64,000 bases of DNA from Patellaria atrata CBS 101060 (GCA_010093705.1 MU006124.1:1-64000), one strand, 5' to 3'. Counted from the first letter of the stretch, positions 1 to 31,779 are shown. Notes: generated by a model from the sequence alone, not told the origin. A program made the numbers and translations.

Positions 1-138
1 AGTGTAAAGAGATTAAGTTAAGGAAAGAAGAAGTTATAGTCGCGCGATCTACTAGTATCAAGCACGTAGCGGTAGAACCTCGGCGCGACTACTACTAATA
101 AGGGAAAGTAGGAAATGATAATCTATGATATCGTCATA
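1..138. mobile_element. End of an LTR-like element (third family) inserted into the family-B element; truncated by the window edge
   Basis: Higher-GC segment ending ...CGTCATA (RIP form of ...TCACA). Sequence from 139 onward is the reverse complement of family-B internal sequence (cf. 57801-57821). Confidence 0.5.
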
Positions 139-8598: not shown

Positions 8599-9315
8599 CT
8601 CGGAAGAAAGGAAAGAGAGGTATATACGACTTAATAGATAGATAACACGTCTATTATATATCTAAGTAAAAGAAATAAACTCTTAGAATAAGAGTTAAGA
8701 AGAGGGAGGATAGTATTACGGCTATAAGTTATAGGAATATATAGATAACGAGTAAGGGGAAGAAAGGAACACCACTCGGGAGAACTATAGATAAAATGAG
8801 TAATAGCGAGTCACGTGATTTGGACGTTTAGACGTTTGGACGTTTTAATCGTAGAGAACGACTAAACGACCGAACGATTAGAACGACTAGGGAGGATTAT
8901 ATAACTTAGACGTTTAGACGTTTAGACGTTTTAGTCGTAGAGAACGACTAAATAACCGGACGACTAAAACGACTAAAGTATAGGCAACCAAATTAACTAT
9001 AGAGGATAGAAATATTTAAAGATAATCTTTCCCTTATATATTTAGATTCTTCGTAGTTATTCTTACTATTAATCTTACCTATAAATTTAAATATTATAGT
9101 TTTAAACTTAACTTCACTTATTATATTATTTCTATATAATACGTCTTATCTTATTATAAGTAGTACCCGAAGTTAAGAAGTTAGTAAATTATACTAATAA
9201 CTTAAAATATCTTTATTATATATATTCTATTATTTTACTAAATTTACCTTTATAGTTAACCACGTTAAGTGAGAAGTTAGGCGTATTTCTAAACTTATTT
9301 AATTTTATTTTAATA

Positions 9316-9537
9316 TAATAATTATCACTTATTAATCTTTTTACTTTCCTATATTTAGCGGGTTTATTTATATTTAACTTAATTATATTATTAGGAAATT
9401 CCGTTAACCGATAAGGCTATTTAAGCTTATAATTATTATTTATAACTCTCTCTTTTTCTTAACTTAATCTTTTTACTTAATAGTAGTTATATATAATTAA
9501 TATTAATAGATTAACTCTTAATACTATAAATATTATA
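9316..9537. mobile_element. ~222-bp insertion (probable RIP-degraded solo LTR) inside the A1 3' LTR
   Basis: The A LTR breaks at ...TTTAATA (9315) and resumes after a repeated TTTAATA (9538-9544). The insert is absent from the other three A LTRs. Confidence 0.6.
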
Positions 9538-12500
9538 TTTAATAAATATAAACTCCTATTATAATAATAATTTATCTAAATTTCTTTAGAAATTTTCGAT
9601 AAAAGTTATAGAATTTATTAAATAATAAAATTCTCTTTATATTTATTAGTAACTTTTAATTTTAGACTATTTTAGTCTTTTCTAAATCTATTACTATTCT
9701 ATTAATATTAATAATAAAGCTAAGAAATTTTATTTTTATTATATAAAATTTACTTTTCTTAATATTAATTTATAGACCGGCCTTAATTAATACTTTTAAT
9801 ATTTTCGCGACGTGAGTTTAATACTTTAATAGATATTTAAAGTAGATTAATATATTATTAATATATATTATATAAAAGTTATTTAAATATTAAAAGAACG
9901 CCTTATTAATAAATTATTAAAATAAGATTAAACTATTATATAATTTAAAAGATAGTATTTTATACTTAAATAATTTATATTTTATTTAAAAGATAATAAA
10001 ATTTTCGACTAATTTCTTTATTTAAATTTAATAGAATATTTATTTTATATTAAGTTTTATAAATATCTTTATTTATCGAAGGCGTATTAATATTTCTTTA
10101 ATTAGAGATAATAGATATTTATTCTTCTTAATAATATTATTTAACTTTTTATAGTTAATATAAAATCTTTAACCTCTTTTTAACTTTTTAATAAATAATA
10201 CTAAAGACGCGTATAATATCTCGCTTAAAATAATAAATCTCTTTTAAAAATACTTTTTTAGATAGTTCTTTATTAGCTATAAATATTTAATAAATATATT
10301 ATATAAAAAGTTAATAGTAAGATTATTATTTTAATCTAATATTATATTATAATTTATATTTTCTCTAAATAATAGTAATTTATTAAATATAAATTTCGAG
10401 AATATATAAATTAAATAATAATATTTCTTAAGTAACTTTTTATAAATTATCGCTTTATAAATATCTTTATTTTTATTTAGAGAATTTTTATTTTTTAAAA
10501 GTTAATTTTATATTAAAAAGTTAATTTTATATAAATTTATAATATTTATAATAATATCTTTATACTTTATATTTTTTAGATAATTTTCTCTATTAACTAA
10601 GTAGATATTTATATAGATTCTAGTAATATTAACTTATTTATTTAACTTTAACTTTAACTTTTTAGAGAGTTCCGATATCTTTCTCTCTATTAGATTTAAT
10701 AGTTTTAATTTTATTTTTTAAAAATTAAAGTTAATATTTTTAGTCTATAAACTTAATTACTTTTATTAAAATAGTTATAATTTTCTTCTTTAATTAATTA
10801 ATATTTTCTATTAATTACGTTCTTATTTATTAATAGCTTTATCTTATTATTTTATATCGAATTAATATTATAAGTTAATTTAAGTTTATAGCTCGTTCTT
10901 TAAAATTATAATATCTTATTATTAGTCTTTAATTATAATAGTTTATTCTAGTTAAATAATTCGATAATACTTATAATTAAGTAAATTATTAGTTTTAGAA
11001 AACTACTTCTTACTTATAAGTATATTATTATAATTTATATCTATTATTATAATCGATATTAATTACTTTTATTCTTTAATTATAAGACTTATTTTAAGTA
11101 TTTAATTAATTAATACTATTTTTAAATTATTAAAAGTATTAACTTTAATCTTCTAATTTATCTTTCTAACTTTAATTTTAAGATATTATTTTAAAGCGGG
11201 TAACTATCTCTTATTTAATAAAATATACTTTTAAACTTTAATATTAATTAAAGCTTTAAGTTATATTATAATTCTATTCTTTAAGATTTAATATAATATT
11301 ATAAATAGTTTTTTTAATACTAGATTATTAATTAATATTATTAATACTTCTATTATTAATTTTAATATAAAGTCTTTATTTAAAATTTCTTATTTTTCGA
11401 ATTTAATTTTAAATTAAATTTTAAGTTCTAATATTTATCTTTTTAAATTAACTTTATTTTAATTATCTTCTTTAATCTCTAATATTTTAACGTTTTATAT
11501 TTAGTCTTATTATAGTTAAAGTAGTTACTTATAAATTTCTAAATAATTATAATCTACTTTATTACTTATAATATTATAAATAAGATAATTTCTCCACTTT
11601 TTAATTAATATAAAATTCTATTTATTATTATTAAAATAAAAGTTATTTTAATTAGTTTATTATATTTTTAACTCTTTTTATAAACTTTATTAGCTTTATT
11701 TAATCTTTTTAACTTTTATATCTATATTATAACTTTATTATAGTATTTTTAAAAGTTAATTTTATTATTATTTATAACTTTCGTTATTATTAGTTTTAAA
11801 TTATTATAAAGTTTATTATAAAGTTCCTCTTTCTATTAATTATATAATAATTTAACTTTATTAGCTAGCTAGATAAATATAAACTAGAATTTTAGAAAAT
11901 TTATTAAATAACTTTATTTTAACTTCTTTAATTTATCTTTAACTTTTAATTATCTATTTAAGTTCTTATAAATTTAGTCTAGAAATCTTATTAATTTTAT
12001 TAAAATTATATTATTTTTCTCTAATTTTAAGAAAAAGTATATATATTTAATTATTTTACTATTAATTTATATTTTAATATAGATAATTTTCGTTCTTTTA
12101 TCTTAAAATTAATTATTATTAATATAAAGTTTATTATTTATCTTACTCTTTTACTTTTTATAGATTAACTTCTTACTATTAATTAATTTTAATAGATTAA
12201 AGAACTTTTTTATCTTATTATCGCCTTTACTTTTAAAGTTTTTAGTTAAGTTAGCTATTCTAATTTAATTATTCTAATTTAATTATTATAATTATATAAT
12301 ATTAATAATTCTTTATTATTAAATTTATCGTTAAATTAAATGTTTTTTTAATCTAGTTTAGATTATTTAATTTATCTCTTTAAATTATTAATCTTATTTT
12401 AAAGGCGTTTTATAATTTCTTTATTTATTTAATATATTTATAGCTTTAATTATAAGTTAAATATTATTTTATTAATAAGATTTACTATCTTTCTAAGTTA

Positions 12501-15161
12501 TATCTCTTAAATTATAAGCTTTATTTTTATATAAAAATACTTTATTATAAACTAGTCTAGACTTTTAATTATCTATTTTTTCGCTTTATCGATTATATTA
12601 ATATTTTAATTATCTATAATAATAGTATATTTAAAAGACTTTTCTTTTTTTATTATTTTAAAGATTTCTTTTAATAGATTCTATAAATTTACTTTTAAAA
12701 TATTATTAGTAATTTACTAATTAATTATTTCTAATATTAATTTATATTAATATATTTTTTCTTTTTCTTTTAATTTAATATTACTCTTTATTTCTAAATT
12801 TATAGTTAACTTATTATCTATTTATTTTATTAAGATTATTAAAAGTTTAACTATTTTATTTAATTTACTATAATATTTATTTCTTTAAATAATTTATATT
12901 TATTAGTTCTAATCTTTTTTAAATATTAGATTATTATTATTATTAATATTAATACTTTTAAATATTAAATATTTTATTATTAGTAGAGTTTAGCTATTTA
13001 TAAATTCTTAATTAGTCTAATAATTATTTATCGATTAAACTAATATTATACTTTAGTTAAAATATTATATTATCTTTTTAAAGACTATTAAAAGAGAACT
13101 TAATCTAATATAATAATATAATATAACTATAATAATTATATTTTAACTATCTTTATTATTAACTACTAAATATAAAGATTAAGTTAAGAAATAATAATAT
13201 TATAGATTAAATATTTATATATAATAATTTTATTTTATTAAATTTTAATTTAACTATCTTTTATTTAATTAATTAGCGCTTAAAGATCTTTTTTATATTT
13301 AATTTAATAAAGATTTCTTATAAATAAACTAAATACTTAATATAGAAAATATAGAATTAATATTATAATATATTATTATATTAGTTAAATAGAAAATAAT
13401 TAAATTAAAACTTAATAAGATAAAATTATTATATATAAATATTTAATTTATAATATTATTATTTCTTAATTTAATCTCTATATTTAATAGTTAATAATAA
13501 AGATAATTAAAATATAATTATTATAATTATACTATATTATTATACTTTTTAAGTTTAATAAGATAATTATAAAAATTTATATAATTAATTATATAATTAA
13601 TAAATTATATAAAAATAATATTATAAATAAAGTTTATAATTTCTTTTATAAATTAATATTTATTAATATATTCTTTTAATATTAAAGAATTTTTAACTTT
13701 CTTAATTATTAAAATTAAAAGAAAATTAAAGAAAAATAAATTTAAATTTATATATTTCTAAATATTTCTATTTATAACTTTTTCTTTAATAATATTTATT
13801 TATCTTTATTAGTTTATATAATTATTTAATATTATTTAAATAGAGATTATTTTTAAAGATAATATCTTAATTTAATATAATAATAATAAAGTTATAACTT
13901 TCTTTAAATTAAAAAGAATAAAGATAATTAATTAAATTATAAATAAATAAAGATAATAAATATTATTATTAATTTAAAATATTATTAAATTTTAATAAAT
14001 AGATTAAAAAGTATTTAAGTTTTAATATAAATTAAATTTATAATTATTAAATATAAAAATATTAAAAATAATTAAAATAATTATTTTATTATTTAATAAC
14101 TATTTTAAAAAACGTAAAAATATATAAAAATATATAGATAATAACGTTTATATTTATTAAATAATTAAAAATATATAAATAATAATATTAATATTTATTA
14201 AATAATTATTTTAAAGAAATAATATTAATAATTAATATAAAATAATAAAAGATATATTTTATTATTCTTTTTATTAAAACCTTTAATTTAATAAAAAGAC
14301 TTATACTTTAATAAAATTTAAATATATAAGAAAAAGATTATTCTTAAATATTTCTATTTTTTATAATTAATTTAATTATTTATACTTTAATTATTTTAAT
14401 CGTTAATTATTTATAATAATTAATATAATTAAATAATTAATATTTAATTATTTTAATTATTAATTATTTATAATAATTAGTATAATTAAATAATTAATAT
14501 TTAAATTATATAATTCTTTATTATTTATTTTATTTATAATTTTTTTAAATAATATTTTTTTCTTTTCTTTATTTATTATCTATATATTTCTATAATTTAT
14601 AGTTATAATATTTTTATAAATAAACTAAATATTTAATATAGAAAATATAGAATTAATATTATAATATATTATTATAATAATAAAATTATTAAGATATTAA
14701 TTCTTATAATAATTAGAAATAATAAGCTAATTATTTATACTATTATAATTATAATATTATTATAATCTAGAGTTTTTAAATTAATATAATATTATCTTTT
14801 AATTCTTATATTAATACTATTTTCGTTATTTTCTAAGATATAGATTTTATACTATTCTATCCGTTTTAGTATATATCTATAGTATATTATAGCTAGATAG
14901 AACCTCTCTATTAAGAATTAAGCGATATATATTAGATGGTGAGGCTCGCTACCGGGTAAATGGATACTTACTAGTTCAAAACAGTGGTGAAAACAATAGT
15001 ATAGAACGGTAGCTTGAGATAGAGCGTTAAACCGTATTAAAATAGATCTCTGACGAGAGCACGGAGCTGTAGTGTTTTATCTGTTCTCTTTCTAACCTAG
15101 TATCATTGTCAACTATTCAGTATATAGTCCATATCTCTCTCAGTAGTTGCAAATCAAGCGA

Positions 15162-15235
15162 CATATTCATGCACCTGCAGATCCAGTTTATCTCACAACA
15201 TATTCCATGCACCTGTAGATCCAGTTTATCTCACA
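15162..15235. repeat. Short imperfect tandem duplication (~36 bp)
   Basis: CATATTCATGCACCTGCAGATCCAGTTTATCTCACA / CATATTCCATGCACCTGTAGATCCAGTTTATCTCACA. Confidence 0.85.
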
Positions 15236-15389
15236 CTAGGCCTTCCATCTCATCACTTTGGTCATCAATTGCTCCACCATCTTGAGGCTGCATTGTCTAC
15301 AACAATCAGAAATGGTTTTGCGACGACTTCTTGATTTGAATGATATACGTTTCAGCTATAAGGCAAATGATAAAATTTCTTGTGCGGTT

Positions 15390-15868
15390 TTTTTTTTCGA
15401 AGAGTATATCTATCTCCAAGCGGCTTGCTAGACGGCTTGAGAGAAACGCGAAAAGTACTATAATATGGCTGATTCTAATCCGGTATATTATGCTGCTCAG
15501 TTTCTACAGCCCGGGCTTAAATGGTCATGGTTCAGCGATAAGATGGATGGTCATATTGAAAAGAAACACTGGCTTAGGGGGAACCCGAGAATAGATGGAG
15601 ATACGGGCATTTAGGGCAAAGTTCGATAGCTATATACTAACGAATATAAGGGTCGCTACAGCCAAATCGAGGTCCCTTCCCAATCCACCCACCCCCGTAG
15701 GCACGGCGACGACTTTGGTGGCCTATAAGCCCATCAGGCTGTTCGCAATCGATCATCACAAGCCATCGACTTCTTCGACGAATACTCAGCCCACGATACA
15801 CGCGAAATCGAAGCTCTGATATACTGGAACGAACGCTACAACAGCCAACCGGATCTAGCCCGGATGGG
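15390..15868 (+). mobile_element. hAT-family transposase relic (C-terminal part), running into the assembly gap
   Basis: Translates A*EKREKYYNMADSNPVYYAAQFLQPGLKWSWF and IYWNERYNSQPDLARM, typical of the fungal hAT C-terminal/dimerisation region. Contains stops and frameshifts. Confidence 0.7.
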
Positions 15869-16553
15869 NNNNNNNNNNNNNNNNNNNNNNNNNNNNNNNN
15901 NNNNNNNNNNNNNNNNNNNNNNNNNNNNNNNNNNNNNNNNNNNNNNNNNNNNNNNNNNNNNNNNNNNNNNNNNNNNNNNNNNNNNNNNNNNNNNNNNNNN
16001 NNNNNNNNNNNNNNNNNNNNNNNNNNNNNNNNNNNNNNNNNNNNNNNNNNNNNNNNNNNNNNNNNNNNNNNNNNNNNNNNNNNNNNNNNNNNNNNNNNNN
16101 NNNNNNNNNNNNNNNNNNNNNNNNNNNNNNNNNNNNNNNNNNNNNNNNNNNNNNNNNNNNNNNNNNNNNNNNNNNNNNNNNNNNNNNNNNNNNNNNNNNN
16201 NNNNNNNNNNNNNNNNNNNNNNNNNNNNNNNNNNNNNNNNNNNNNNNNNNNNNNNNNNNNNNNNNNNNNNNNNNNNNNNNNNNNNNNNNNNNNNNNNNNN
16301 NNNNNNNNNNNNNNNNNNNNNNNNNNNNNNNNNNNNNNNNNNNNNNNNNNNNNNNNNNNNNNNNNNNNNNNNNNNNNNNNNNNNNNNNNNNNNNNNNNNN
16401 NNNNNNNNNNNNNNNNNNNNNNNNNNNNNNNNNNNNNNNNNNNNNNNNNNNNNNNNNNNNNNNNNNNNNNNNNNNNNNNNNNNNNNNNNNNNNNNNNNNN
16501 NNNNNNNNNNNNNNNNNNNNNNNNNNNNNNNNNNNNNNNNNNNNNNNNNNNNN
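15869..16553. other. Assembly gap (685 N)
   Basis: Run of N. Confidence 1.
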
Positions 16554-16690
16554 TGGGGTCAGTGGTCGGCGATCAGCACGACCGATCAGAACAGAGAATA
16601 GAAGAAACACTACTGCCACCACTGCCACCACTGCCACCACCAGGATATCCAGTCTGACACCAGATGCCAATGAAAACCTGCCCCTCTGGC

Positions 16691-18705
16691 CTATAACTTC
16701 GACAGCAAGAAGCCTTCCTTCTGTAACGTTTGAAACACTCCTGTACGATCATACTTTCTCGCAATAGCTTTCAATCTGGCCAAGTTGGCTTGCGGGTACG
16801 TCGCTAACGGATTCTGATCTCTCGACGCGTCGTTCATATAAACGAACGGGAGATGCGACGCTCGCAACTGACCCAATTCCTTCCACTTCCGAGTCGTGGC
16901 GATACCAACACCACGGACGAGCTCATCGTGCTCTGGGGAGGTCCAGTCCATTATTGAGGTCCACCCTAGATTTCTTTTAGTCTGGCGTTGACGTTGTTTG
17001 GCTATGACAGTTTCAAGTGTTCAATTAAGGTCATGTGGGCTCACATTGCTGCGTAATAGACTCTAAACCAAGCGGATTCCCCCCATTCCTGTTCCCAGCG
17101 TCGACAGCACTTTTCGGGATATGCTGTACTACAAAAGTCATATTGGCCCCGGTAGCAGCGCTCACCTCTGCGGTCTTGGCGGCCCAGAATGCATGCACCT
17201 CTTTGTAAAGTTGGATGTCGACTTTGCTGCTTGCGCCACGATAGTCGTGCCTAATTTGAGATTGAGGTTAGTGAGTCCTCGACAGCGTCTACGAAGGACT
17301 GTTCGTGGAATGTATAATAATGAATTGCCTACCGAATAGGAGTCGGAGGCGATGCGGCCGCAATGATATTACTTAAGTTTAGCACCGAGGCTTTTATAGA
17401 AGGGACTGCTGTCTGTAAGACTGGGATATCGTAAAAGGGCCTAAAACAAGGCGGCAGCTCAACTGGTGCTGAGTACACGAGTCCAATGTTGCAGAAAGTA
17501 TTTGTTATTACGATGATAGTTGATCCCTTCGGATCGTCATTGTTCTGCCATTCTGCAAATGCTTCAAGGATGGCCGTCGCTTGGTCAGGGGCATGAGTCG
17601 TGGATTGGAACCAGAGGTTATTGATAGGGACGGTCGCGAGGTCGAATCGGGTGACGATTCCTTAGTGCTAGTTTAAGAAATATTGCAAGCCACGCATTTT
17701 AGAGGACTCATACCGAAATTCGGACCACCTCCTTTCAAAGCCCAGAACAAGTCCGCATTTTGATTAGGATTTGCGTTCACTATCGTACCATCCGCAAGAA
17801 CGACCTGGCAAGTTAATCAAAGCTACTCATGGGCCCCTGATGTACAATACCTCTACATTTTTGAGGGTGTCTGCAACGAGGCCATATTCAGCGGTGAAAT
17901 GTGAGACACCTCCTACTTAAGGATTAGTGATCGTCTCAAGAAGGAGCGATTTTCAGTCCAAAGTTGACCTCCAAGTATAAGTCCACCGACTCCAACGCTA
18001 GGGACTCTTCCTCCAAGCACCGTCAAACTGTACGGATCCAGGTACTCAATGACATCAGACCACTTTGCACCAGGCCCTACCTGTGCAACTTCTTGAGAAG
18101 AGGTTACTGTGGTCCGGTTGAGACGACCCAAGTCTATGAGGATTCCAGAGTCGATGCTAGACCAACCAGGATTTGGAGAGTGGCCACCGGAACGAACGGC
18201 GAATTCGACGTGGAGAAATGCGACGATCTTGATGATCTTGGAGACTCCTGTTGCCGAGTCTGGGCGGACAACGCATGCTGGGTTGAACCAGCAGGTTTGT
18301 GACCTTCGATGGAATTAGTGGAAAGCCAAACGCTTCGAGATTATACAGTGTGTCGTGCACTTACCAACTTCTTTCAACATCTTGCTCGACATCTTCGCCA
18401 ATATGGAATGCTTCTGAGTCAAACACAAGTTTTGAGATAAAACATGCCGTATGAACTAATCCAGTAGTTTTCTTAATTTCCGTCTTATCAGAAAGGAAGT
18501 CGGCGACTTCGGGACTGCTCCGCAGGTGCTCGGTGATTTCGCTCGCAATAATATCTCCTACGTCGAGAGAGGCGACGAAATCGCCAATGAATCCGAAACC
18601 CGTTTTGTTGGAGGCCCTTCCATCATACACATCGGAAATTACTTCTACCATGGAGGCTACAAGAAGCTGTAGACAGCAGAATAGAAAAACGCAAGGTGCA
18701 AGCAT
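16691..18705 (-). CDS. FAD-linked oxidoreductase (BBE/VAO-type, FAD_binding_4), 545 aa, probable signal peptide
   Basis: Exons 18705-18365, 18303-17969, 17912-17851, 17804-17714, 17660-17333, 17250-17045, 16965-16691. GT-AG introns, 1638 nt, open. Motifs [52 protein letters not shown]. Confidence 0.93.
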
Positions 18706-20149
18706 GACTTACAGGTCAGATTCAGGAAGCCTACGATGGCTTGAGGGAATCGGCTTTTCTTATAAGAGTTTCAAGTCGGTGATCATCCCGTCCTTACTAC
18801 GTTAGTTCAGGAAAGCGCCGACTTTTACTGCTATCCCGCTGTTCCTAGTTGAGATGACTCAACCTACCTCAATCTATCCGATAAATTCACGACTTGATCA
18901 GGCTTTCAAATCATGCACACCCAGCAACTTGTGGAATGTGGCTGGAGGAGAGCAAAAGAGGTCAGCGCGGGTGGTTCATCTGAAGTTGCGCTAGCGTCAA
19001 ATCAGAACAAGTTGCGAGTGAAGGTGCAGTGTGGCTTTAGAAGGAGAAACATGATTTGGTCTCGCTCGAAGAACTCTTATATACCGCATCTACTTCCAGT
19101 TGCTCCCAGGGCGCACATCGCGGGATCGGATCATGGCATGCCCGCAACGTGGAACTAGGATCTACGGTAGTTGTTTCTACATTACATACTAGAGCCCTTC
19201 CGTGGGCCGTCGGTAGAACTAAGGTAGAATTATAACCTAGTTCTAGTTCTAAAGAGCGGAAGAGCTAAGTATTATTAGAACTAGACCTCCCTTCCTTCGA
19301 AACTTAAATATAACATACATCCATCGCTAACAATAATAATGCGAAAAGGTAACAGAAAAGAAGTTGCTTTCCTAAACCCCGCCAGTATTATCGAACCTCT
19401 GATTTATACGACTTCAAAAAGGGTCCTCCTGTACGGTGTTGATTCTATATGCCGATGGTGGGGGGCGAAGTTCAAACAGCTAAGTGTTGGTAAAAAAAAG
19501 CATCCCCTATGCTCTATACTGTACGACGTCGGTTAGAACTATGGTCGTACAGAGCTGGGCATTGGTGCCATATATGTGATGCTATTGCAAGCAACTTAAT
19601 AACAGTAAGAGCCAGGATCAATAGCATTTGAATTGAAGCGCGTGCCCTCCCGTCAGGGTATTCCAATCTTTGGGGAAGCTCCACGCTCAGCTAAGTTACT
19701 CGCCGCAGCCTGTATGTCAGCAACTATGCCCCAATCCGTTGCAATACCCACGAGGGCAACTTTCAATAATATTGGTACAAGTGGGGCCATTAAATTGTAT
19801 CAACCAGTTTTGAGTGCAACTTGTAAAGGACGAATGTCTGTTTTCAGCCGCGCTCCGATAATACTCACTATCTAGATTCACTCTGTATACCTTATAACTT
19901 GTGAGGAAGAGGCTGGGTTCTGCTTATATCCATATAAACTCTTTCAAGGGAACCGATAGTTCTGAACAAGCACGGCCTAAGCACTAATACTCCTAAGTGA
20001 CGCCTCTAAATAGTGACTACTAGATCCCGAATCACGTATTCCAAGCCCGGTAGCGCTGCAAAGCGTCACGTCACTTAAAAAGGGTTGGTTCAAACAATCG
20101 CGCAAGCCCTTAAGTTACGAAGATCTAACGTTCTCCCGACCGTAGAAAC

Positions 20150-21456
20150 ATGTCTGCACCGCTACCTTCCTTTATCCCGCCTCCTACTCATATCAACGAT
20201 ACGCATAAACATTACGATGTAGCAGCCGGTATCATTATCATGCTCATAGTCGGAACTTCTGTAACAATATTACGTCTATGGTGTCAATGGAGAGCGCAGC
20301 TATTAGGATATGACGATTGGGCAATAATGCCAGCGCTAGTATGCCCCTACCCTTACTCTTAAACCTTGAGTGACTATGCGGTACCCAAAAACACGAGCTC
20401 TCCTACATCATTAAACGAATCTCTGTCGCTAATTCTCTATAGGTTCTCTATATCGGCCATTCTATTATGGGGGTCTACTGTAACCTATGTGGCGGCATTG
20501 GCAAACCACTGTGGGAAGTGTCATATCCGGAGTTTCAGATTTGGTTCAAGGGTATCGTAGGCACGACGTTCCTCTACCCACTGATGACGGCCTCAGTGCG
20601 AATCAGTATTCTTTTGTTCTACCAGCGCATCTTCTCCCAAGCGCACACAGTCACCCGCTGGGCAATACGAGTGACTCTGTCGCTAACTGCGATTTTTGTT
20701 GTAGTCTATAGTATCCTTCCAGGCTTCGTATGCACCCCGATAAGCTACGGGTGGCGCCTGTTAGAAGACCGGGCGACTCATTGCAAGAGCAACCAATATT
20801 ATTATGAGTATACGTTGAGTCTATACAGCTTAAGTATTGCGTTCGACGTGCTTTTAATAATTATTCCGATCTACCCTGTCATGAAGCTGCAGATGTCACT
20901 TCAGAAACGGGTCGGTGCTATTGTAATGTTTGCCTTAGGAGCAAGTAGCTGCGTTGCGGCGAGCTATAAGTTGGCGGTATATGTGGATCAGTGGGATAGG
21001 ATTGGGAATATCGATCCTCGATGTAAGTGATCGTTCGATCGAGTGATGGTCAAGGAGCTTCCACTGACTAAGTTTGAAGGGCTCACCAACCCCCTCTCCC
21101 TAGTTATACCCCCTCAATTCGACGACTACGGCTACACTTTCTGGATCCCTTCCCAAGTAGAACCCACAACCGCGATGATTGGTGCATCACTACCCGCGCT
21201 ACGACGTCTATTCAAGACACCCTTCAAGTTTCTCACATCCACATTAAGGAGTTGGACTGGGACCACGAAGATTGGAACAGGGAGTAGTAGTAGCCGGGGC
21301 AGCGGGAGAAGTGGTCAAGGTTATGGAGGCTTCAGGAAGATGCCGGGAGGGGATTCTAGGAGGGGAGCGGAGACCGTTACGGGCGGTACAGATTCATGGG
21401 AAGTATCAAGGGAGGAGTGGGAACTAAGGGACTTAAGGGGTAGCAGAAGAGTTTAA
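20150..21456 (+). CDS. PTH11-like / fungal rhodopsin-domain integral membrane protein, no CFEM domain, 381 aa
   Basis: Exons 20150-20338, 20443-21022, 21080-21456 (1146 nt, open). Motifs LRLW..GYDDW, RISILLFYQRIF, CTPISYGW, DVLLIIIPI..VMKLQMSLQKR, VEPTTAMIGASLPALR. Confidence 0.9.
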
Positions 21457-21795
21457 ATATTTACACATCACAGTTACGGCTTGTACATATTCCTTCTGGT
21501 TAGGGACAGGACAGTCTTGGCTCATCGTAGGTCTTTCTAAATCGGGACTCCCTACTGTGATACAGTATGAGATAGCCGTATATGATGACTTGAAACTCCA
21601 CGACATGTACCCCTAATCGGCTGATGAAACTTTCATGCTAATACTATCTAGACTGTTGGATGTGTTCGCCCCCTATTGTGGCTCAGACGTGAAAGATTAT
21701 GGCGTTACATAGAGACATATATATTTCGTAATCATCCACCCCGAAGACGGGTATCTCTCATTCCTCGTCTCCAAAGCACCTTATTAGACCCTCCA

Positions 21796-23068
21796 TTACA
21801 CACTCAATCTCAACCTCCACTCCTCGGTCCTGCGTATGGCCTCTATAATTAGTACACTCACCCATAGCAAACCAATGCAGATATTCCACCGGAATATCAA
21901 ACCACCACTCTCCGGTTCCTCTGGCTTCAGCATTTGCACCTGCAGCGCTGTACTCGCACCCCATGCAGCTAGGCCGACACTTACTAACATACCTGCGTCA
22001 GCCCGGGTTGCAGCAATCTGTAGAATTATTACGGTAATGAGGTTCAACGCAATCATGAACGGGTTATACCAGCGTGTTCCCAGCATTTGAGCCAGTGATC
22101 CGGTTCCCGAGATTCGATCACCAGAGATATCTTGCAATCCATACGCAGTATCGAAATAGAGCGTCCATGCTGCATATGCTGCTGCTACTGGAGTACAAAC
22201 GCGCCAGTCAACCGTGACAAACGCACTTTTCGCGATGTCAACAATCCAGTCCAGAAACCCATCGGGTCGTAGAAAGTCAGTTGGTACAGTGGACGAATGC
22301 GGAGCTATAGAGCTTAAGGAGACCCACCCAGCAATTACTCCTCCCGACAGACTTGCGGCAAGCACAAACTGTGGCCATCCTACGATTCTCTTAGCCCAGG
22401 GATAGACAAAAGCTAAAATACAACTCGGTATGACGGCTACAAGGGTGCTGGTACCCAGGAGCTTTTTTGTAAGGAAGCCGCATTGGAAGATCTGGATAAG
22501 AAACCATAACAAGGCAAAGTGAGGCGAGCAGCTACCAGAGGGCAGAGGGCGTTTAGATGTGCGAACCGCGAATGAGTCGATGTGTGCATCAAGAATATCA
22601 CTGTAAGTGAAGTTTCTTAGTCAGACTGTCTTACTCATCTTCCGGGAATATGTACTTTGAATTCATGAGAAGATCGGATGGGACGCAAATGGTGCAAAGT
22701 AGATAGGAGAGAGGGAGAGTCTCACTTCCACGTGCAGAAACACCCATGGATCATTGTCATGCATAGCCAATTACTCAATATCAGCCACATGATCTGCTTA
22801 GCCGACAGGAGATCCGGGTTGCAAAACGTTGCGAAGCAAAGGCCCCATACTATAGCACAGCAGTGTCAGTATGAGTAGAAATAATTGAACTGTCTGGATG
22901 CCGAATTCCATTGTAAGATGCAACTAGAAATGTCGACATGAAAGCGAGTGACCTACTAGCTGGATACCATGCGAACCACGACTCACGGGTGTGAAACCGG
23001 GAGAGTTCCCATAGGGTGCGGAGTTTGTGTCGAAGATGTAGATTGCTGGATCCTAAATGTTGTTTCAT
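21796..23068 (-). CDS. UbiA-family (Coq2-like) membrane aromatic prenyltransferase, 346 aa
   Basis: Exons 23068-22957, 22849-22726, 22600-21796 (1041 nt, open). Aspartate-rich motifs NDILDAHID..RTSKRPLPSG and YFDTAYGLQDISGD, plus YPWAKR and multiple hydrophobic segments. Confidence 0.92.
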
Positions 23069-23532
23069 ACCTTTTGATTACCCATTCTTGCAATATACTG
23101 TGGAAGTAGTTGGGATATATATACCCTCTTAGGTCATTTTGTCATATTGGGGTAAATATCTTTCTATCACACGACTTCAAGGAAATCCGTTGTACAACTC
23201 CTTTTGTTGGTGCCTGTTTCCGGTGAGATGAGTTCGGGATTGATCAATGATGATGTTCTTAGTTCTATTCGCTTGAAGGTGCAGCTCAAATCCTCAAGGG
23301 TCACAGTAAATGAGAGTTGTGTAACAGACAAGAATGGAACCTCGCATTTCTCGCATCACCTCGAGCTTCCAGTGCATCAGTGCTGCAGTTCACAAACTCC
23401 AACAGTCCAACCTATTATAGCACCCAACCATTTACGCCCTTAGCTGCATGGGAGTACTATAAAATTCCCATCTTGCACCCCGGACGTCCGCTAGAACCAG
23501 ACTCAGTGCTCACATAAGTTATATGAATTGTA

Positions 23533-24610
23533 TCAACCATCGACAACGTTCTTCCATGTAAGACCACACCACAGTAAGCTAATCTCGAATAATTTTCCCT
23601 GCCTCTCCTTGTCTCGAGTCTCTGGGCTCGATTCCGACTCTTTTCTGAGGACGAAGTATCCACTCTTGTTTTTGAAGGCCGCCCCAACTGCTGCCTCTGC
23701 AACATCGGGTCCAGCATCCCTCGCACGGCGTAGCGTTGGTTTTACGAACCTCAGTACCGGCTGCAAGTGATTGAGCACTGTACTGAGGAGGAGCTTCCAC
23801 GAGCGTGGCACATCAGGCTGTTGGAAGGCCCTCGAGTCGAGGATCGTTCCGGGATCAATCGCCAGCGCGGAAATGTTGTGGAATCTTGGTGTCTGGCAAG
23901 TGTTAGATAACTAGCGCACGGACAAGATATACTGCGGGTTTTGTTTGCTTATATGCGTTAGATTTCCTTACCTCTTTTAGTCTTCTGCCTAATTCATACA
24001 TGCACATAATAACTGCCAACTTTGCAACACTGTACCGATAGAACCCCTTCCCAACTTCGTCCTGCTCTCTCTCTTTCGGCGGGTGGATAAGTTCATCTAG
24101 GTTGTCCGGTATGGCCGGTGGGAACCTCTCCATTGGGGCGCTCCTTCCTGGCCAATGTACCTCGCTACCTAGGAGCAAGATTCGGCCACCTTCTTTACTG
24201 AAGCTTTTGAGCAACCTGAGGGTAAGATTTAGATGGGCAAGATGCGCGATAGCCATGGAGCGCTCATAACCGTCTTCAGAAAACTTAGGACCTCCCGCTA
24301 ACGACCAGCAGAACGCATTGCATATGGTTGCAACGAGAGGAGGATACTTTCCCTTTGCAATATCATTGCTAAGGGCATCCGCAAAGGTGCTGACATCTCT
24401 AAGGGATGCCAAGTCTAGGGTCTTGAGCTGCGTGCGAGCCGTTGGAAACTCCTCGATTACATTAAGAAGTTTCTTCGTGTTGGGATCATCCGGTGAGCTG
24501 CGTCGGACAGTAAGAAAGAGAGTAAGCTCCGGATAATGGAAGAGCAGATGGCGGGTTGTAGGAATTGCTAGAGAAGAGTTAGCACCGGTGATAAGTACTG
24601 TGCCAGTCAT
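23533..24610 (-). CDS. Short-chain dehydrogenase/reductase, 332 aa
   Basis: Exons 24610-23972 and 23892-23533 (999 nt). Motifs VLITGANSSLA, LDLASL, ICNA, catalytic YSVAK, AIDPG. Confidence 0.92.
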
Positions 24611-25181
24611 GGTGGTTGACGAATTGATTCTAAGTACGTGATGTTGTGAGTGTACTGTACGTCTCAAGTCAGATTATTGCAGACTTTATAGAGGGGTTAA
24701 GTCAACCGTCAGTCGCTTGTAGTAGGTAATGCGAAGATTTCTTTATTACGGCCTTAATAGTCTTAACGCCATAACCGTTGTGGCTGGGGTTGTAGAGTGT
24801 CTAAGAGGACATGGTCAAACTGAGCTAAATCCGGAGGTTTATCCTTTCTTGGATCCCTGGCGATGTGCTGGTTGTACATATGCATACCAATATTGATAAT
24901 AGGGCCAATTTCGTTCTAGGAATGTATATCGAGCAACTGAGAAATTAACAGACGACTGCATGCAGATAATTGGGGAATGGGTAACTTCGTATTTAGCCGG
25001 ACTAGAGCTCATTCCTCCTCACATTACTGACTAATCTGAGAATAGGTTTCCGCAATTAGTTCAATATTGACCATTGAGCGTATATCAACGGCCGAGGAGT
25101 CCCAACTGTCGCAAGCGAAAAGATAAGGGCACGAGTATTTCTTGCTCCTCGAAGGGGAGACGCTGCGTATCTACTTCAAAA

Positions 25182-26952
25182 ATGGGAATATTAACAATGA
25201 TTCAAGTATTGGCCTCAATTTGGACGCTTTTTACCTTACCCACCAACGCACAAAACAACTCCTCCGCATTTTCCCTCTGTTCCTCTCTCCAGTCCACGCT
25301 GTTCTGCTCCATCATTCTGCCCTCTGATGCACCTTATATAAACCTCACAAGAAAGAACTGGTAACACCATCGCTTCCAAAGCGTTTCCCTAGTCTGAATC
25401 TATTATTAGGGCCGAAGTTGCTGAGAACTTTCCCGCCTGCATTCTCCTCCCATTCTCCGTTTCGCAACTTCAAAGAGCGCTTAATCAGCTCACCGCCCAC
25501 CGCGTCCCGTTTGCTATCCGCAGTGGTGGCCATGCAGTCGCGCCCAATGCAGCGAGTATCGGAGCGGAAGGAATTCTGATTGATATGGGTGGTTTCAATG
25601 AAGTCGAACATGACCTTGAGAGAGAGGTGGTGAGGGTTGGAAGCGGCGTGAAATGGGGTGATGTGTATAGGGTTCTGACTCCAAAAAACTTGACTACTGT
25701 TGGCGGACGCTTGTTGGATGTTGGGGTAGCAGGATTAACGTTGGGAGGTAGGTTCTTCTGGATTTAAGAAGATGAGCTGGAAGCATCTGGTATATTCTAG
25801 TAAGCCTGATCCGTGAATAGGTGGTTTGTCGTACCTTAGCGATAGGGAAGGTCTGGCGTGTGACAATGTGCTCAATTATGAGGTTTGTTTCTTCTATTAC
25901 TCTTTAAGTCAAGGCTTATAAGTCAAGTGAAGGTACTCTTAGCGGATGGGCGGATTGTAAATGCGAATACATCGTCAAATGTCGAACTATTCCGTGCATT
26001 AAAAGGCGGCGGTAACAATTTTGGTATAGTATTCGCCTAGACCAATGACGAGTAGAGAAAACTCATATAGTAATGCAGGTATTGTAACCCATTTCACGCT
26101 CCGAACCTTTCCGCAAGATTTTGTCTGGGGTGGAATCCGGGCCTATAGCTACGACCAGCTTCCTGCAATTCTATCAGCAGTAGCAGAATACCAATCCACA
26201 CCGAACAAGGACTTAAATGCAAACCTTATGATTCAGGTTCCTGTCACAAATGCGTCGATTGGAATAATTCTGAATATGGTATACTTAAACCCTACTGCGA
26301 ATCCACCAGCATTTAGAGCTTTTGAAAACCTGAGTTCTTTTGCGGATACTGTAAGTATACGATCTTTCGAGGATTTCATGGCAGATTCATTGTTATTAAG
26401 TACGGTAGATTACCCAAGGTATGTGTCCCTTTCACTAAGGGTAATGCGAAACTAATTGGCTCTACTAGATGGGATTTTCGAACTACGACATTCCTACTCA
26501 ACGCGTCGTTGTACACTGAGGTATTTGAACTATTAGCGAACGCCCATGAACTAACAACTTTATCGAACATTTCTTCCGGTACATTGGTTGTCGGGATACA
26601 GCCGATAGCGGAAACCGCAGTTCTTCAAGGCGATGTACGAGGTGGAAACTCCCTAGGGTTGAGTTCCCGGCCACAGATATGGTTGTCACTTAACACGGGT
26701 TGGAGGAAGAGTGAAGATGACGTAGCAGTTTACGGCGTATCAAGAGATTTGGCAAAGAAGGTTGAACAGCTGACCAGACCAAGCGGACACTATCATCGAT
26801 ACATATTCATGAATGATGCCAGTTGGGATCAAGAAGTTATACAACACTATGGTGACCACAATGTCGCAAGAATGAGGGCAGTACAAGCGAAATATGATCC
26901 AGACAGAGTATTTCAGGATCTCGTGCGTGGGGGTTGGAAGCTTGCCCTGTAA
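25182..26952 (+). CDS. FAD-linked oxidoreductase (BBE/VAO-type), 497 aa, probable signal peptide
   Basis: Exons 25182-25360, 25410-25747, 25821-25882, 25933-26023, 26079-26418, 26469-26952 (1494 nt, open). Motifs [51 protein letters not shown]. Confidence 0.93.
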
Positions 26953-27624
26953 TGCAAAGTGCCTCGAACACTAGTCGAATACACATATTCCCCAAGACTT
27001 CTCCGGCAGTGCACGCTTTCATCTTGACGTTATCTCGGGTTTCGGGGGTCCACTACCTTTGCAATGCAACGAAGGAACTGCGCGGTGTCATATCTCAAAA
27101 GAGCAATCCAAACCGAGATGTGCATGTTGATCACATATGTGCGGCAGCAGTCATACTCGCGGCACTGGAGGAGATAGCGAAAGTATTGGGGTACTAAATC
27201 GCGGGATTTATCTCTCTTTAGTCTGTCGTAGTCGTAACCTCACACGGTGTTCCTTATATATCCAGAATAAATAGGCTTCCGCAGTGGCCCGAGAGATGAT
27301 CTCAACGTGAAAGCGTCTGAAAAACTAAGTTTTAGTTAGCGAATAAAGTGAACTTTATTTCCATTGGTGCGAAGATTATACTTCAAACAGAATCTTATAA
27401 ATCGTAAAAAGTGCGAGAGGTTTCCCCAAACACTTTCTTCTCCCATAACCCCATGCAAAGTCATATTTGAGAACGTCGTCCGCCCATTTAGGGTCCTCAA
27501 GAAACCTCTCAGGCCTAAACTTGTCAAAGTCTGAGCCATAAATCTGTTCGTTACGACCAATAACCCAGGGGGAGGAAGCAAGCTCGGTCCCATCAGGTAT
27601 AAATCGTCCGTTATTCGGTATTTG

Positions 27625-27860
27625 TGTGAGACTACTAACCCCCTAGGTGATGTCAGATGGCTGATCCCCGACAGCCTTATGTTGGAAGATCGTCAGGATC
27701 TCCAGGAGTTCGTGTTGGAGATCTTCAGAGCTAAATGCTAGGCTTTATGACGTTAAAGGATTAATTAATCAAAGGTGGTCTGTCATTATATAAACACTAG
27801 ATAGAATCCGTAGTTGTACGGAGAATCAAGCGACTACATTCAGTTACCCACAATCTCACA
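27625..27860. mobile_element. Solo LTR (236 bp) inside the P450
   Basis: TGTGAGA...TCTCACA termini and 5-bp TSD ATTTG (27620-27624, 27861-27865). Removal restores the frame GGLQIPNNGRFIPDGTE. Confidence 0.9.
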
Positions 27861-28242
27861 ATTTGCAGACCTCCCTTTTTGACATATCGTGGTAGATAGC
27901 TTACAGTGGGTGGGTCTAACCGTAACGTTTCTCTCACACAAGCTTTCAAGTAAGGAAGATTGCGCACTTTATCGTATTTTAATGGTTCGTCCGAGCTCGC
28001 CTCATCCGGGGATAGATTAGCGAGAGTAACCTTAAACTTCTGCTACGAGTTTCTTCAAACACGCTTTGTTTTCAAACACATAACTTACATAATCGTATAG
28101 AAGATCGTGTGGCCGGACGTTTCATGCCTAACTGTAAGGAAGGTATTAAGATCTTCCTTCACCTCTGCTAGTGTTATAAGAGTGCCATCGTAATTCTTCG
28201 CTTTGCGGAGCATGTAGTTTAGCATATGCGTACTAGAATAAG

Positions 28243-28470
28243 TGTCAGACGTAAGGGTGCTGAAAATGATCAAGATAATCGCTCGATTGTTTAATGACTG
28301 TTCTAAAGAGCGTTTAAATACATGAGAACATGCAGGCAACAGCGTTGATACCTACTAGGCAGCTGTTTTAAAGGAATGATGCTAATAACTAGCGTAAGGC
28401 AGTAGGAGATATACTTGATTATCCTTTCCACCAAGATCTTCAGTCTAACAAGGGGACCCATACTTCAACA
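28243..28470. mobile_element. Solo LTR (228 bp) inside the P450
   Basis: TGTCAG...TCAACA termini and 5-bp TSD ATAAG (28238-28242, 28471-28475). Removal restores the frame NPEPYSSTHMLNYML. Confidence 0.9.
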
Positions 28471-29765
28471 ATAAGGTTCCGGATTCTGGATTCTTTCTGC
28501 GATGAGGTCATCTCTGAATCTAAGCATCCGCCCAAGGGGTGTGGTATCTCCAACATTAGGTGTTAGTAACCACTTCAGCGGTCCGCGAAAGAGAAACTTT
28601 TTTAGAGATGGAAGTCGTCCTAATGTATGCATAGCTTTTACCCCTCCTTGCATGGTTTTTATCAAATTAAGGGCTTCCTCGTAACCGCTGGGAATTTGTG
28701 AATAAGACCAGCCCATTAAGCGAATCATATTGGCGTCTGCGGCGATGAGACTAATAAGTCAATAAATCCTATCTATCCCAAACAAAATTTCTACCAAGAC
28801 TTACATAGGCCAATTGGTGAACTCAAAAATCTGCCCCGTGACTGCGAACCTATTAGTTAGTTCACAAATCCACGTTTTAATTGCGGAGTCCAATATTATT
28901 TCATCAGTACGAATAGCATCTAATCTGAACTGCGAATGATCAACGCGTGTTCTACTCTCATTGAGTACATATTCATTCACATACAGTTTCTGCGATTCGA
29001 TGCCTTGCGTTACGATGCATCTGCCAATCCTTCGACTCGACGATTGATTCCACATCATCGATGGAAGAGTTATAATGTGGAGTCTTGTCTGCACGATGAT
29101 GGTAGATATCAGGCAGCAAACGAGGGTCGTTGCAAAGTAGTAAGTTCGGTTGCCACCGTATGACTGCGCCTGCATAAAGTAGTCAGTCAAAGGTCGCTAC
29201 CGAACTGACGAGTTGATAATGATTAAGCCAAAGAAGCCGCACCAAATCTTTTATGTGCATCTAACATTAATTCGTGCTCCTTGCCGGATAAAAATGCTTT
29301 GACTGAATACAAGCGAGACAACCCGGCGAGACTTGGTCCAGGGAACATGGAAAGACGTTTGTAGGGAGCCCAAAATATATAAGACAACGTGATAAGTATA
29401 GTAAAAAGCGATGGTAGCACTTCGGTCACAAATATCAAAGCCGCCATAACTGCGCGGTCCAGGAATACTATGGAAAATTAATCGAGAAGGAGATAATCAA
29501 AAGTACAGAGACAGGGCATAGATATACAAGTAGGAAGAAGTTGAAGAAGTGGATTATACTTGCCGAGCACTGAAGGATCCCCGCTTTACTACATTAACTT
29601 TGTAACAGCGTCGTGTAAGCTAAGACCCTTAACTCATGCGTGCTAAAGATTCTAAGGTAGGTTATATGCGAGTGTCCGAAAGTAACTTGAACCCCGGTTT
29701 TCAGCTCTGCAAGATTTAGGGAGATACTGTGCCGCGCGGGAGTGGATGAAGCTCATGCATGAATT

Positions 29766-30561
29766 CTAATTTAGAGCAAAACGTCTTTGAAAGATGCAGT
29801 TACTCATCCTCTGACATGCCGTGTCCCAATCATTAGTCCATTCCCTGTGAAAGGGTTGGTATCCTAGTAAACCGCCAATCCATCTTCCAATAACTATGTT
29901 CAGGAAATACATCGATATGGTCTTTCCGAACGGAACATACCATGGAAGAGAAAGGCAGGAACCACCGCCGTCAAAAAGCTGTGATTAAGGTCAGTGTCTT
30001 AGCCAACTAACGGAAACCGGAACTCACCGAGAATACCTGGATGGGATCAGGATATTCCCCATAAAGGACAATCTGATCCTGATATCCGTACCAATTCTGA
30101 AAGAATACAGTATCGAGAGGATAGTTCTCCTTAGTTACGGATCCACTCATCAGAAACTTAGTAATATTCTGCTCTGTAACGGGAGCAGGATAAGAGCGAT
30201 GATGCACCCAAGGCTTGATATCGACCTCGCCATCAGCAGGAGTGATGATGCGCGCCTTGCCTTCGATTTCGATAATAATTCTGCCTTCAAGAACTTCAAA
30301 ATACTCTGTCTGATAGGGGTGAAAGTGAGTCGGCGGCTTCTTGTCCGAGCGTTCCATGACTTCAATAAGTCTTGGGTGATGAGAATCAAAGAGTACTTCA
30401 ATCATAAATGCGCGATTCGGATATGGGACAATCTTAGCTTCTATCGCGCCTTCAAATCTACCGAAATAAAGTTAGATGTGGACACCATAGTAAGGAAATT
30501 TCACGTACGCAAGCACTAGGTCATTTCCTATATTTGAAAAAAGTGGTTTAACTGGCGCCAT
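29766..30561 (-). CDS. Cupin-domain oxidoreductase resembling VirC/FogC of salicylaldehyde clusters, 231 aa
   Basis: Exons 30561-30509, 30457-30028, 29978-29766 (696 nt, open). Motifs PPTHFHPYQTEYFEVLEG, PWVHH, LDTVFFQNWYGYQD, GRWIGGLLGYQPFHREWTNDWDTAC. Confidence 0.88.
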
Positions 30562-30689
30562 ACTAGCGGAAAGATAACCTCGAAAAGAGTTCCCGAATCT
30601 TACTGTAAGGTGGCAAGGGCACATATAGTGAGATGTAGAATTGAGGTGTGTGATCTAGAAGAGACTGGAGGAAGACAGGCATATATAAG

Positions 30690-30980
30690 GGTCTTGTTCA
30701 GGCCGTGCACGGTTTCAGAGCGTGCACGGTCGCCCACCAAAATTCAGTTGTTAAAATGCACCTATCCGGAGAATAATAAGGACTACTTTTTACTCCACCA
30801 CCACCGATATGACTCCAATTGAGGCCGCGCTTGAGAGTCTACAGCTTCAAGATATCCCTAATATAACGCAAACTGCAAAAGAGTATAATTGCGACCGCAC
30901 GACGTTATCGCGGCGTTTTCGTAATGTCACTATTTCCCGCGAGGTAGTAATCGAAAACTTTAAATTAATGACCGATATTA
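30690..30980 (+). mobile_element. 5' fragment of a Tc1/mariner-pogo-type transposon (HTH start), truncated
   Basis: ORF from 30809, MTPIEAALESL..NITQTAKEYNCDRTTLSRRFR, is a typical transposase HTH N-terminus. Repeated CGTGCACGGT motifs at 30704-30730 suggest a terminal region. Exact left end uncertain. Confidence 0.7.
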
Positions 30981-31779
30981 GACGGCTAGATCCCGATAAC
31001 CTTATTCTATACCTAACGTAGTTAGCATGTATTAGACTATATTATCAAAAACTTTTTTACTACCTTAAAGTTAAAAACCCTACTATTTAAATTAAAAATT
31101 TATAAGGAACTTAAATTTAAAGACTATTAATAATAGAGTCTTTAGATAGAAGTGCTATTAATAATAAAAGAGATAGAAAAAAAGGAAATAAAAATTTAAT
31201 ATTACTATTAAGCTTAATCTTAATAAATTTAACTAACTAAATTAGATAATTAAAAGCTATAAAATCTAGATATTTAATAGAGAATATTAATAAAAAAAAC
31301 TAAGATAACTTTAATTATATAAATTTAAATAATAAATTAGAAACTAATTTAATAATTAAGTTATTTTAAATATAAATAAATCTTCTATTTATATTTTTAA
31401 AGAGAAAAAAAGGCTCTTATAAAGTTATCTCTTCTTAAAAATTTATAAAAGAACTTAAAAAGAGTATTATTAATTATTAATAACTAATATCTATACTAAA
31501 TAAAATAAAACACTTTAAAGAAACTTATAATATAATATAAAAAACCTTAAAAGTATATATAAATATAGAAAAATAAGGATAAATAAAGAGCCTTTTAAAG
31601 ATTAATATAAAATATTATTAAGTATTATATATTATTAAGTATTATAGAATTTCTTAATAATTATTACCTTTATTATAACACGAAATATCTTAATAATAAT
31701 AAAATAATAAAGCTTAATAAGAAAATTAAATAAAGTTTATATTTTAAGTTTATAAAAAAGATTAATTTTAAAGTTTATA

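Follow-up and report, generated by a model that had tools for sequence, protein, structure and literature searches.

The fungal clusters for yanuthones, macrophorins, paraphaeones and arthrobotrisins (yan, mac, par and AOL_s00215g) hold a cupin of the epoxidase family with four metal-ligand positions, a UbiA prenyltransferase, an SDR (short-chain dehydrogenase/reductase), a cytochrome P450 and an FAD oxidase. The aty, bis and iac clusters (asperpentyn, biscognienyne B and iso-A82775C) and the basidiomycete pan cluster are described as independent of a polyketide synthase (PKS), with a benzenoid from 4-hydroxybenzoate, a UbiA enzyme, epoxidation by a cupin and reduction by an SDR (PMC12720273). 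The vir, fog, srd, anu, str and px clusters also draw on cupin, SDR, P450 and berberine bridge enzyme (BBE)-like oxidase classes, and vir includes an epoxidase cupin, VirH. Here we report a seven-gene island of ~14 kb (16691..30561) in Patellaria atrata CBS 101060 (GCA_010093705.1, MU006124.1:1-64000). This stretch, hereafter the window, spans the initial 64 kb of the 88,802-nt contig C36 in an assembly of 28.7 Mb. An earlier sequence-only reading took the island for an alkyl-salicylaldehyde tailoring cluster of the vir/fog kind. Our results indicate that the island is real but was mis-assigned: it is probably a PKS-free prenylation cassette of the epoxyquinoid type, in which the P450 is dead, and the case for a salicylaldehyde pathway probably does not hold.

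The cupin gene (29766..30561, minus strand) has an open frame of 231 aa, and full-length homology and a conserved metal site assign its product to the hydroquinone-epoxidase family (YanE/MacE/ParE/AR277/PatJ-like), with a predicted activity. The protein is 46% identical to YanE of A. niger (Swiss-Prot) and 45% identical to both MacE and AOL_s00215g277 (AR277), over 211-216 residues. ParE is a Zn-dependent epoxidase with the ligands His62, His64, Glu69 and His104 (PMC12720273), and gene 277 has been tied to epoxide formation (PMC9780802). The island cupin has H62, H64, E69 and H104 in these very positions, and so have YanE, MacE and AR277, an agreement in numbering that depends on the chosen start and first intron of our model. 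It is predicted to have a cupin fold, with a pLDDT of 92; sequence and fold searches of the PDB listed generic cupins and quercetinases only (best Z 9.9, rmsd 3.0, 128 aligned), with no fungal pathway cupin among them. A profile search of 5,594 candidates found 342 proteins with an E value no higher than 1e-5, and no name of the VirC, FogC or StrC type occurs among the best 120 of these. In a quickly built tree that kept 122 of 128 rows (the others were excluded for their length), the cupin groups with proteins from Glonium (OCL14902.1, 69% identical) and Hymenoscyphus (CAG8979679.1, 60%) inside a 95-row group that is sister to YanE/MacE/AR277. One member of this subgroup bears the automatic name 'putative oxidoreductase yanE'. 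Named relatives, ligands and gene context thus probably place the cupin with the yanuthone, macrophorin, arthrobotrisin and patulin-like epoxidase cupins, and not with VirC/FogC as the sequence-only reading had proposed.

To see the company that such cupins keep, metagenome contigs were scanned with the cupin alignment, which gave 57 loci from 150 pattern matches. By best score, 22 of them are YanE/AR277-like, 18 belong to the nearest subgroup, 2 are weak and 15 are PatJ-like, a label that we assume from their patulin-like gene content. The only PKS seen beside a cupin is of the 6-methylsalicylic acid (6-MSA) synthase type (~1,780 aa), in 6/15 PatJ-like, 2/22 YanE/AR277-like and 0/18 nearest-subgroup loci. 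No highly reducing PKS (HR-PKS) stands beside the cupin in any of the 57, where enoylreductase and dehydratase queries from HR-PKSs had no match. The 18 nearest-subgroup loci represent ten lineages, seven of which have an SDR of the window's family within ~2 kb, three a UbiA and none a PKS.

Two of these loci, L042 (4205-12085) and L052 (296-12180), contain UbiA, BBE oxidase, cupin and SDR genes with 9-10 kb of PKS-free flank on each side, on unrelated contigs and amid unrelated surrounding genes. They have this four-gene core in common with the island, to which they are 50-51% (cupin), 44-45% (SDR) and 44% (second BBE oxidase) identical; however, their UbiA is COQ2-like, their gene order differs, and a P450, a second oxidase and a rhodopsin-domain gene were not seen there. 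The L042/L052 cassette appears to represent an intact type of cluster that has yet to be characterised, and as an expression target it would be preferable to the window. In Podospora, the cupin (P0098) and SDR (P0214) relatives lie on one 33,782-nt contig, and P0066 is a fused UbiA-cupin model. In the L066 group, a P450 and a YanE-like cupin accompany both oxidase types and the rhodopsin-domain gene. The window's parts therefore co-occur elsewhere without an HR-PKS.

The L066-type cluster is recurrent in its own right: L066, L068, L070, L072, L074, L076 and L079 (~1-15000) hold two BBE oxidases, a rhodopsin-domain protein, an O-methyltransferase, a YanE-like cupin and a P450, with an additional SDR and a second cupin fragment in L079. 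No PKS or UbiA was found within the stretches covered.

Splice models for the island were built from coordinates, and Pfam recognises two FAD_binding_4/BBE oxidases, a Fung_rhodopsin membrane protein, a UbiA, an SDR (weak match), P450 pieces and a Cupin_2 protein. This is the gene set that the sequence-only reading had named, in the same places. Spliced frames are open in six of the seven genes, and their catalytic motifs are kept.

The UbiA gene (21796..23068, minus strand) encodes 346 aa with Asp-rich motifs at residues 79 and 232; the deposited model P0195 (328 aa) differs and disturbs the first of these motifs, which our model keeps together with the second. A membrane UbiA in place of a DMATS enzyme, with a meroterpenoid as the likely product, had been foreseen by the earlier reading and agrees with our models. 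A genome search for DMATS had no match, and its control likewise had none. The UbiA was its own sole match among 1,842 word-sharing candidates and is 26-41% identical to the seven other UbiAs compared. In a tree of these eight sequences, it joins the UbiA of L064 (FastTree 0.99, with long branches and 26% identity), apart from the COQ2-like UbiAs; L064 is a mac/par-like cluster with PKS, Pyr4 cyclase, regulator, P450, cupin, amidohydrolase and UbiA genes. Atlas features place it among ascomycete UbiAs, including the diterpenoid pyrone protein C cluster of prenyltransferases, with a score of 0.95. As in yan, mac and par, whose UbiA is of similar type, a polyprenyl UbiA and an epoxidase cupin stand in one cluster, the chain length in the island being predicted. 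ParG (PMC12720273) and gene 276 (PMC9780802) both farnesylate methylhydroquinone, and on this basis a long prenyl chain on a hydroquinone is predicted here.

The SDR gene (23533..24610, minus strand; 332 aa, open, YxxxK at 193) is of a protochlorophyllide-reductase-like type, with weak PDB matches to protochlorophyllide reductases and 921 relatives at E 0.001. Our model is identical to the deposited P0196, and the cupin model contains the deposited P0001. Divergent from the SDR is BBE-like FAD oxidase 2 (BBE2; 25182..26952, plus strand; 497 aa, 6 exons, open), which is the gene with counterparts in L042 and L052; an exon of BBE2 had no match in the PDB. BBE-like FAD oxidase 1 (BBE1; 16691..18705, minus strand) is also open, with 545 aa in 7 exons, a hydrophobic N-terminal stretch and the FAD-attachment His motif at residue 151. 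Between BBE1 and UbiA lies the gene of a fungal rhodopsin-domain (PTH11-like) membrane protein (20150..21456, plus strand; 381 aa, open); members of its family also adjoin cupin/BBE genes at L053 and at L066-type loci.

Elsewhere in the genome, DNA at G000:C23:10015-10268 (L184:5015-5268) matches the terminal intron and exon of BBE1 with 83-86% identity. Lying among gene fragments, it appears to be a trace of a former duplicate or a captured piece of BBE1. The C23 locus also has a flavin monooxygenase (FMO) and major facilitator superfamily (MFS) genes and was considered as a missing half of the cluster; we rejected it, the FMO being Tet(50)-like and not a 4-hydroxybenzoate hydroxylase.

The seventh gene, the P450 (27250..29447, minus strand, 3' end approximate), is a pseudogene. 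It is where the sequence-only reading located it, but that reading had missed that it is broken; the decay which the reading allowed for is thus confirmed, by long terminal repeats (LTRs) and frame breaks. P450 exons are interrupted by two solo LTRs, each of which ends in TG..CA and has a 5-bp target duplication: LTR B (28243..28470, 228 bp), which has many genome copies, and LTR A (27625..27860, 236 bp, with a 7-bp terminal inverted repeat), which is 97% identical to a copy on C41. A genome search found both as multi-copy repeats (61 matches; 40/85 candidates scored), and read-contig depth rises from ~300-400 to 8,000-55,000 across two bins, 27443-28524. The P450 frame stays open over 265 codons, with a stop at codon 267, just within LTR B. 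Between the LTRs, two frame breaks with stop codons (28040..28090, minus strand) follow just after helix I, conserved helix-I residues are altered, and the TpA/ApT ratio is 1.31 compared with 0.71-1.05 in the open genes, a raised index of repeat-induced point mutation (RIP). LTR B, the frame breaks and LTR A all precede the haem-Cys exon. In-frame splicing could in principle excise each LTR, in one way for B and in six for A, so the LTRs alone do not prove the death of the gene; the middle segment, however, has an open frame only if 30-44 codons around helices I-J are left out.

Two sequencing runs are available for the locus. They cover introns and intergenic DNA evenly, are probably both DNA of one sample, and thus serve to check bases rather than expression. 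Contigs of both runs span 27834-28257 with zero differences from the window; the lesions are therefore not an assembly error, although the runs may represent the source sample. The clean 5' part and the 97% identity of LTR A to its other copy suggest that the loss was recent. With the P450 lost, any present product would be made without a P450 step, and an intact enyne-forming P450 of the AtyI/BisI type is absent from the island.

One possible mechanism, which we hold at about even confidence, is that the island is a working PKS-independent cassette that converts a prenyl-hydroquinone to an epoxyquinoid (an epoxycyclohexenone meroterpenoid) and has lost its P450 step. A hydroquinone would be made elsewhere, most simply from 4-hydroxybenzoate or vanillate by a decarboxylative 1-hydroxylase homologue encoded on contig C16, and the UbiA would attach a prenyl chain to it, probably a long one of the farnesyl type. 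With O2, the metal-binding cupin would then oxidise and epoxidise this prenyl-hydroquinone, giving an epoxyquinone in the manner of ParE and AtyE, and the SDR, as a proposed epoxyquinone ketoreductase, would reduce one ring ketone to give an epoxyquinol. The pair of BBE-like oxidases, which probably act in the lumen or outside the cell, could re-oxidise an alcohol or cyclise the prenyl chain; enzymes of this type oxidise alcohols or cyclise prenyl-phenols through quinone methides (PMC11375781). The former P450 may have been a phenol-to-hydroquinone hydroxylase or a side-chain oxidase. Gene content, open frames, the family and ligands of the cupin, the P450 lesions and the PKS-free relatives are direct observations; substrate, chain length, reaction order and activity are predicted from the enzyme families.

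The source of the ring was sought on the contig and in the genome. Searches of C36 by tblastn with 14 queries, including PKSs, decarboxylase, transcription factor, terpene cyclase, O-methyltransferase and MFS proteins, matched no remnant, and the absence of a backbone enzyme and of a transporter noted earlier for the window extends to the whole contig. The genome has two non-reducing PKSs (NR-PKSs) and four HR-PKSs (17/17 ketosynthase candidates scored). It has no 6-MSA synthase (best match 30-31% over long stretches) and no orthologue of the 6-MSA decarboxylase (best match 30-32%), in an assembly that may be incomplete. In contrast to yan, mac and par, neither the island nor its genome shows a 6-MSA synthase or decarboxylase; the island also lacks a Zn2Cys6 regulator, its cupin is in the sister subgroup, its SDR is of a different family, and it has two BBE oxidases and a dead P450.

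Phenylalanine ammonia-lyase (PAL) and 4-hydroxybenzoate 1-hydroxylase start the PKS-free aty and bis pathways (PMC12720273, PMC12356543). In P. atrata both lie on contigs other than that of the UbiA, cupin and SDR: the single PAL gene is on C5, and an FMO at G000:C16:62114-63493, beside a regulator and a phenol hydroxylase, matches the '4-hydroxybenzoate decarboxylase' of PDB 8GSM (E 2.7e-99) and vanillate 1-hydroxylase 8X38 (4e-84). PDB 8GSM is presumably VibMO1. The island also differs from aty, bis and iac in having one SDR only and a UbiA that is not COQ2-like. The C16 homologue could supply a hydroquinone; since hydroxylases of this type and PAL are widespread, they represent a possible supply and not a link. 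The C5 PAL locus was rejected as a candidate for the first half of a split cluster, its neighbours being one BBE oxidase and housekeeping genes. Likewise, a second COQ2-like UbiA on C31 and a cupin on C17 have no surrounding cluster. ESF1 lies 13 kb from this second UbiA (G000:C31:81320-97989) and 3 kb from the subgroup cupin in L040 (1864-7471), perhaps by chance or through an old linkage.

An alternative that we consider rather doubtful keeps the same chemistry but makes the island a relic, the remains of a full cluster of the yan/mac/par kind whose 6-MSA synthase, decarboxylase and regulator were lost to the repeat blocks around it. The P450 would have died first, the six other genes would not have decayed yet, and nothing would be made today. 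The two solo LTRs, the frame breaks and the raised RIP index in the P450 all fit such a history, as do the RIP-type DNA that encloses the island, the grouping of its UbiA with that of mac/par-like L064 (0.99, on long branches), and the missing 6-MSA enzymes and regulator. However, the six other genes retain open frames and catalytic motifs, and the cupin falls outside the YanE/MacE clade in a subgroup that is PKS-free elsewhere, so a PKS need never have existed there. No PKS remnant is present on C36, though RIP could have erased one. The ring might also come in trans from the orsellinate-type NR-PKS (SAT-KS-AT-PT-ACP-TE) on C15, and the product would then be an orsellinate derivative that is prenylated and epoxidised. 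Meroterpenoid pathways can be split (PMC12891896), the C15 cluster has no prenyltransferase within the 55 kb covered, and by Atlas features the UbiA resembles polyketide-prenylating UbiAs; relatives in the cupin subgroup have no NR-PKS neighbour (queries for 6-MSA synthase, HR-PKS and NR-PKS), and we regard a C15 supply as very unlikely.

The salicylaldehyde reading survives in a split form, in which a distant HR-PKS would make an alkyl salicyl alcohol that the island hydroxylates, prenylates through UbiA and, at best, epoxidises, as in late trichoxide steps. Cupin, SDR, P450 and FAD oxidases also occur in vir, fog and px, VirH is an epoxidase cupin (PMC11161606, PMC12720273), and four HR-PKSs are at hand. 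Yet the set described as defining such clusters, of which PMC11915489 lists 493, is an HR-PKS with two SDRs and a cupin (PMC13463297, PMC11915489). Compared with it, the island has no HR-PKS, second SDR or DMATS, its cupin belongs with the epoxidases and probably does not fill the aromatase role, and C36 has no HR-PKS. An HR-PKS linked to a cupin and two SDRs was not found elsewhere in the genome either: none of the four has a cupin in the 33-40 kb around it (scanned for open reading frames of at least 105 aa, a scan that could miss short exons), and none of the ten Cupin_2 matches in the genome is near one. The C1 and C3 HR-PKSs have alpha/beta hydrolase, SDR, BBE and P450 neighbours; the C10 enzyme has SDR, dehydrogenase and FMO neighbours, and the C6 enzyme esterase and P450. 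The px homologues of VirB/FogB, VirD/FogD and VirK are 273, 291 and 274 aa long (PMC11161606), compared with 332 aa for the single island SDR, which may differ from these homologues in its protochlorophyllide-reductase-like PDB matches as well; this evidence is indirect. With no HR-PKS in 57 cupin loci, an outcome that the sequence-only reading itself would have counted against it, we judge the split pathway unlikely. We find it most improbable that a cupin-SDR core detoxifies lignin-derived quinones by epoxidation and then reduction, with UbiA and the oxidases as add-ons. This would suit the four of seven SDR-linked lineages where no UbiA was seen, the non-biosynthetic surroundings of L047, L049 and L061, a tyrosinase 6 kb from the cupin in L040, and a cupin subgroup common in wood-inhabiting Xylariales; however, epoxyquinones are themselves reactive, every characterised member of the cupin family covered by the review is biosynthetic (PMC12720273), and the island UbiA adjoins the SDR.

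The PKS-independent cassette, in turn, has several findings against it. Support for the cupin's 95-row subgroup is 99 in the quick tree and only 59 in a second, exon-1 tree (143 columns, 25 rows), and no characterised enzyme falls within it among ten clusters looked up. The SDR has no characterised name among ten relatives looked up and no match in L064. The UbiA is not of the COQ2-like type of L042, L051 and L052, and cassettes of the L042/L052 type are therefore not strict orthologues. In Xanthoria and A. brasiliensis, the cupin and SDR matches are on different contigs, and only four of the ten nearest lineages offer ~10 kb on both sides of the cupin. Because VirH acts in an HR-PKS cluster (PMC12720273), a cupin of the epoxidase kind is by itself compatible with a polyketide acceptor. 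The hydroxylase on C16 is a catabolic enzyme of wide occurrence and may not be connected with the island. Words shared by the upstream regions of the island genes are not above shuffles (136 and 170 of 200), and tblastn finds no transcription factor on C36, as the earlier reading had noted for the window.

The island occupies a GC-normal stretch (~15-31 kb, GC 41-49%) between blocks with a GC content of 5-37% and RIP-type dinucleotide indices, and C36 is AT-rich past the window end up to ~86.5 kb. Two of the blocks, at 2-9 kb and 44-51 kb, share 87% identity with each other and are full of stops. The left border (14932..16660), in which no additional cluster gene was seen, comprises multi-copy repeats at 14932-15197, 15398-15868 and 16554-16660 around an assembly gap of 685 N (15869-16553). 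The repeat at 15398-15868 is young, 96-99% identical to four other places, and its decayed open reading frame enters the gap. Beyond the other end of the island, 124 nt upstream of the cupin start, a high-copy repeat (30685-31018) carries a short helix-turn-helix-like open reading frame (weak Pfam match, E 0.025), which we take to resemble the start of a Fot1/pogo transposase. This repeat would leave very little promoter to the cupin gene.

Other clusters were noted during the genome searches. The HR-PKS clusters at C1:1384000-1405000 and C3:1801000-1819000 have a common parts list (alpha/beta hydrolase, SDR, BBE oxidase, P450 and ankyrin protein), and the C3 PKS is followed by an almost intact copia-type element. 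The orsellinate-type NR-PKS at C15:614000-653000 (L143-L146, L182, L183) is accompanied by a nonribosomal peptide synthetase (NRPS)-like reductase, an O-methyltransferase, a phenol hydroxylase and an MBOAT protein, with MFS, aldo-keto reductase and BBE oxidase genes further out. Four P450 genes lie within 17 kb near a contig end at G000:C21:5324-21942.

A library search, in which coverage of subscription journals was poor, found no paper on the locus, on metabolites of the genus or on a UbiA-BBE-cupin-SDR cassette. The type of chemistry is already known and the cluster may be silent, which limits its interest. Epoxyquinoids are nonetheless reactive and often antimicrobial, and the enzymes that install their epoxides, with the selectivity rules, are named as open questions in the 2025 review (PMC12720273). 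The locus offers parts that can be assayed, namely a cupin subgroup that makes up 95 of the 122 tree rows, an SDR family in which none of the relatives looked up has a name, and a UbiA for which the word search gave no close relative; here, too, LTR insertion is taking a biosynthetic island apart where it borders on repeats. It is tempting to speculate, though only tentatively, that it belongs to a widespread uncharacterised family of PKS-free cassettes, in which an epoxidase cupin of this subgroup and a protochlorophyllide-reductase-like SDR, often with a UbiA and a BBE oxidase, tap hydroquinones from aromatic or lignin catabolism to make prenyl epoxyquinols; the window member would have exchanged its UbiA for a divergent, long-chain one and would still be active without its P450. 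If so, such clusters would be easily overlooked in genome mining because they have no PKS or NRPS core.

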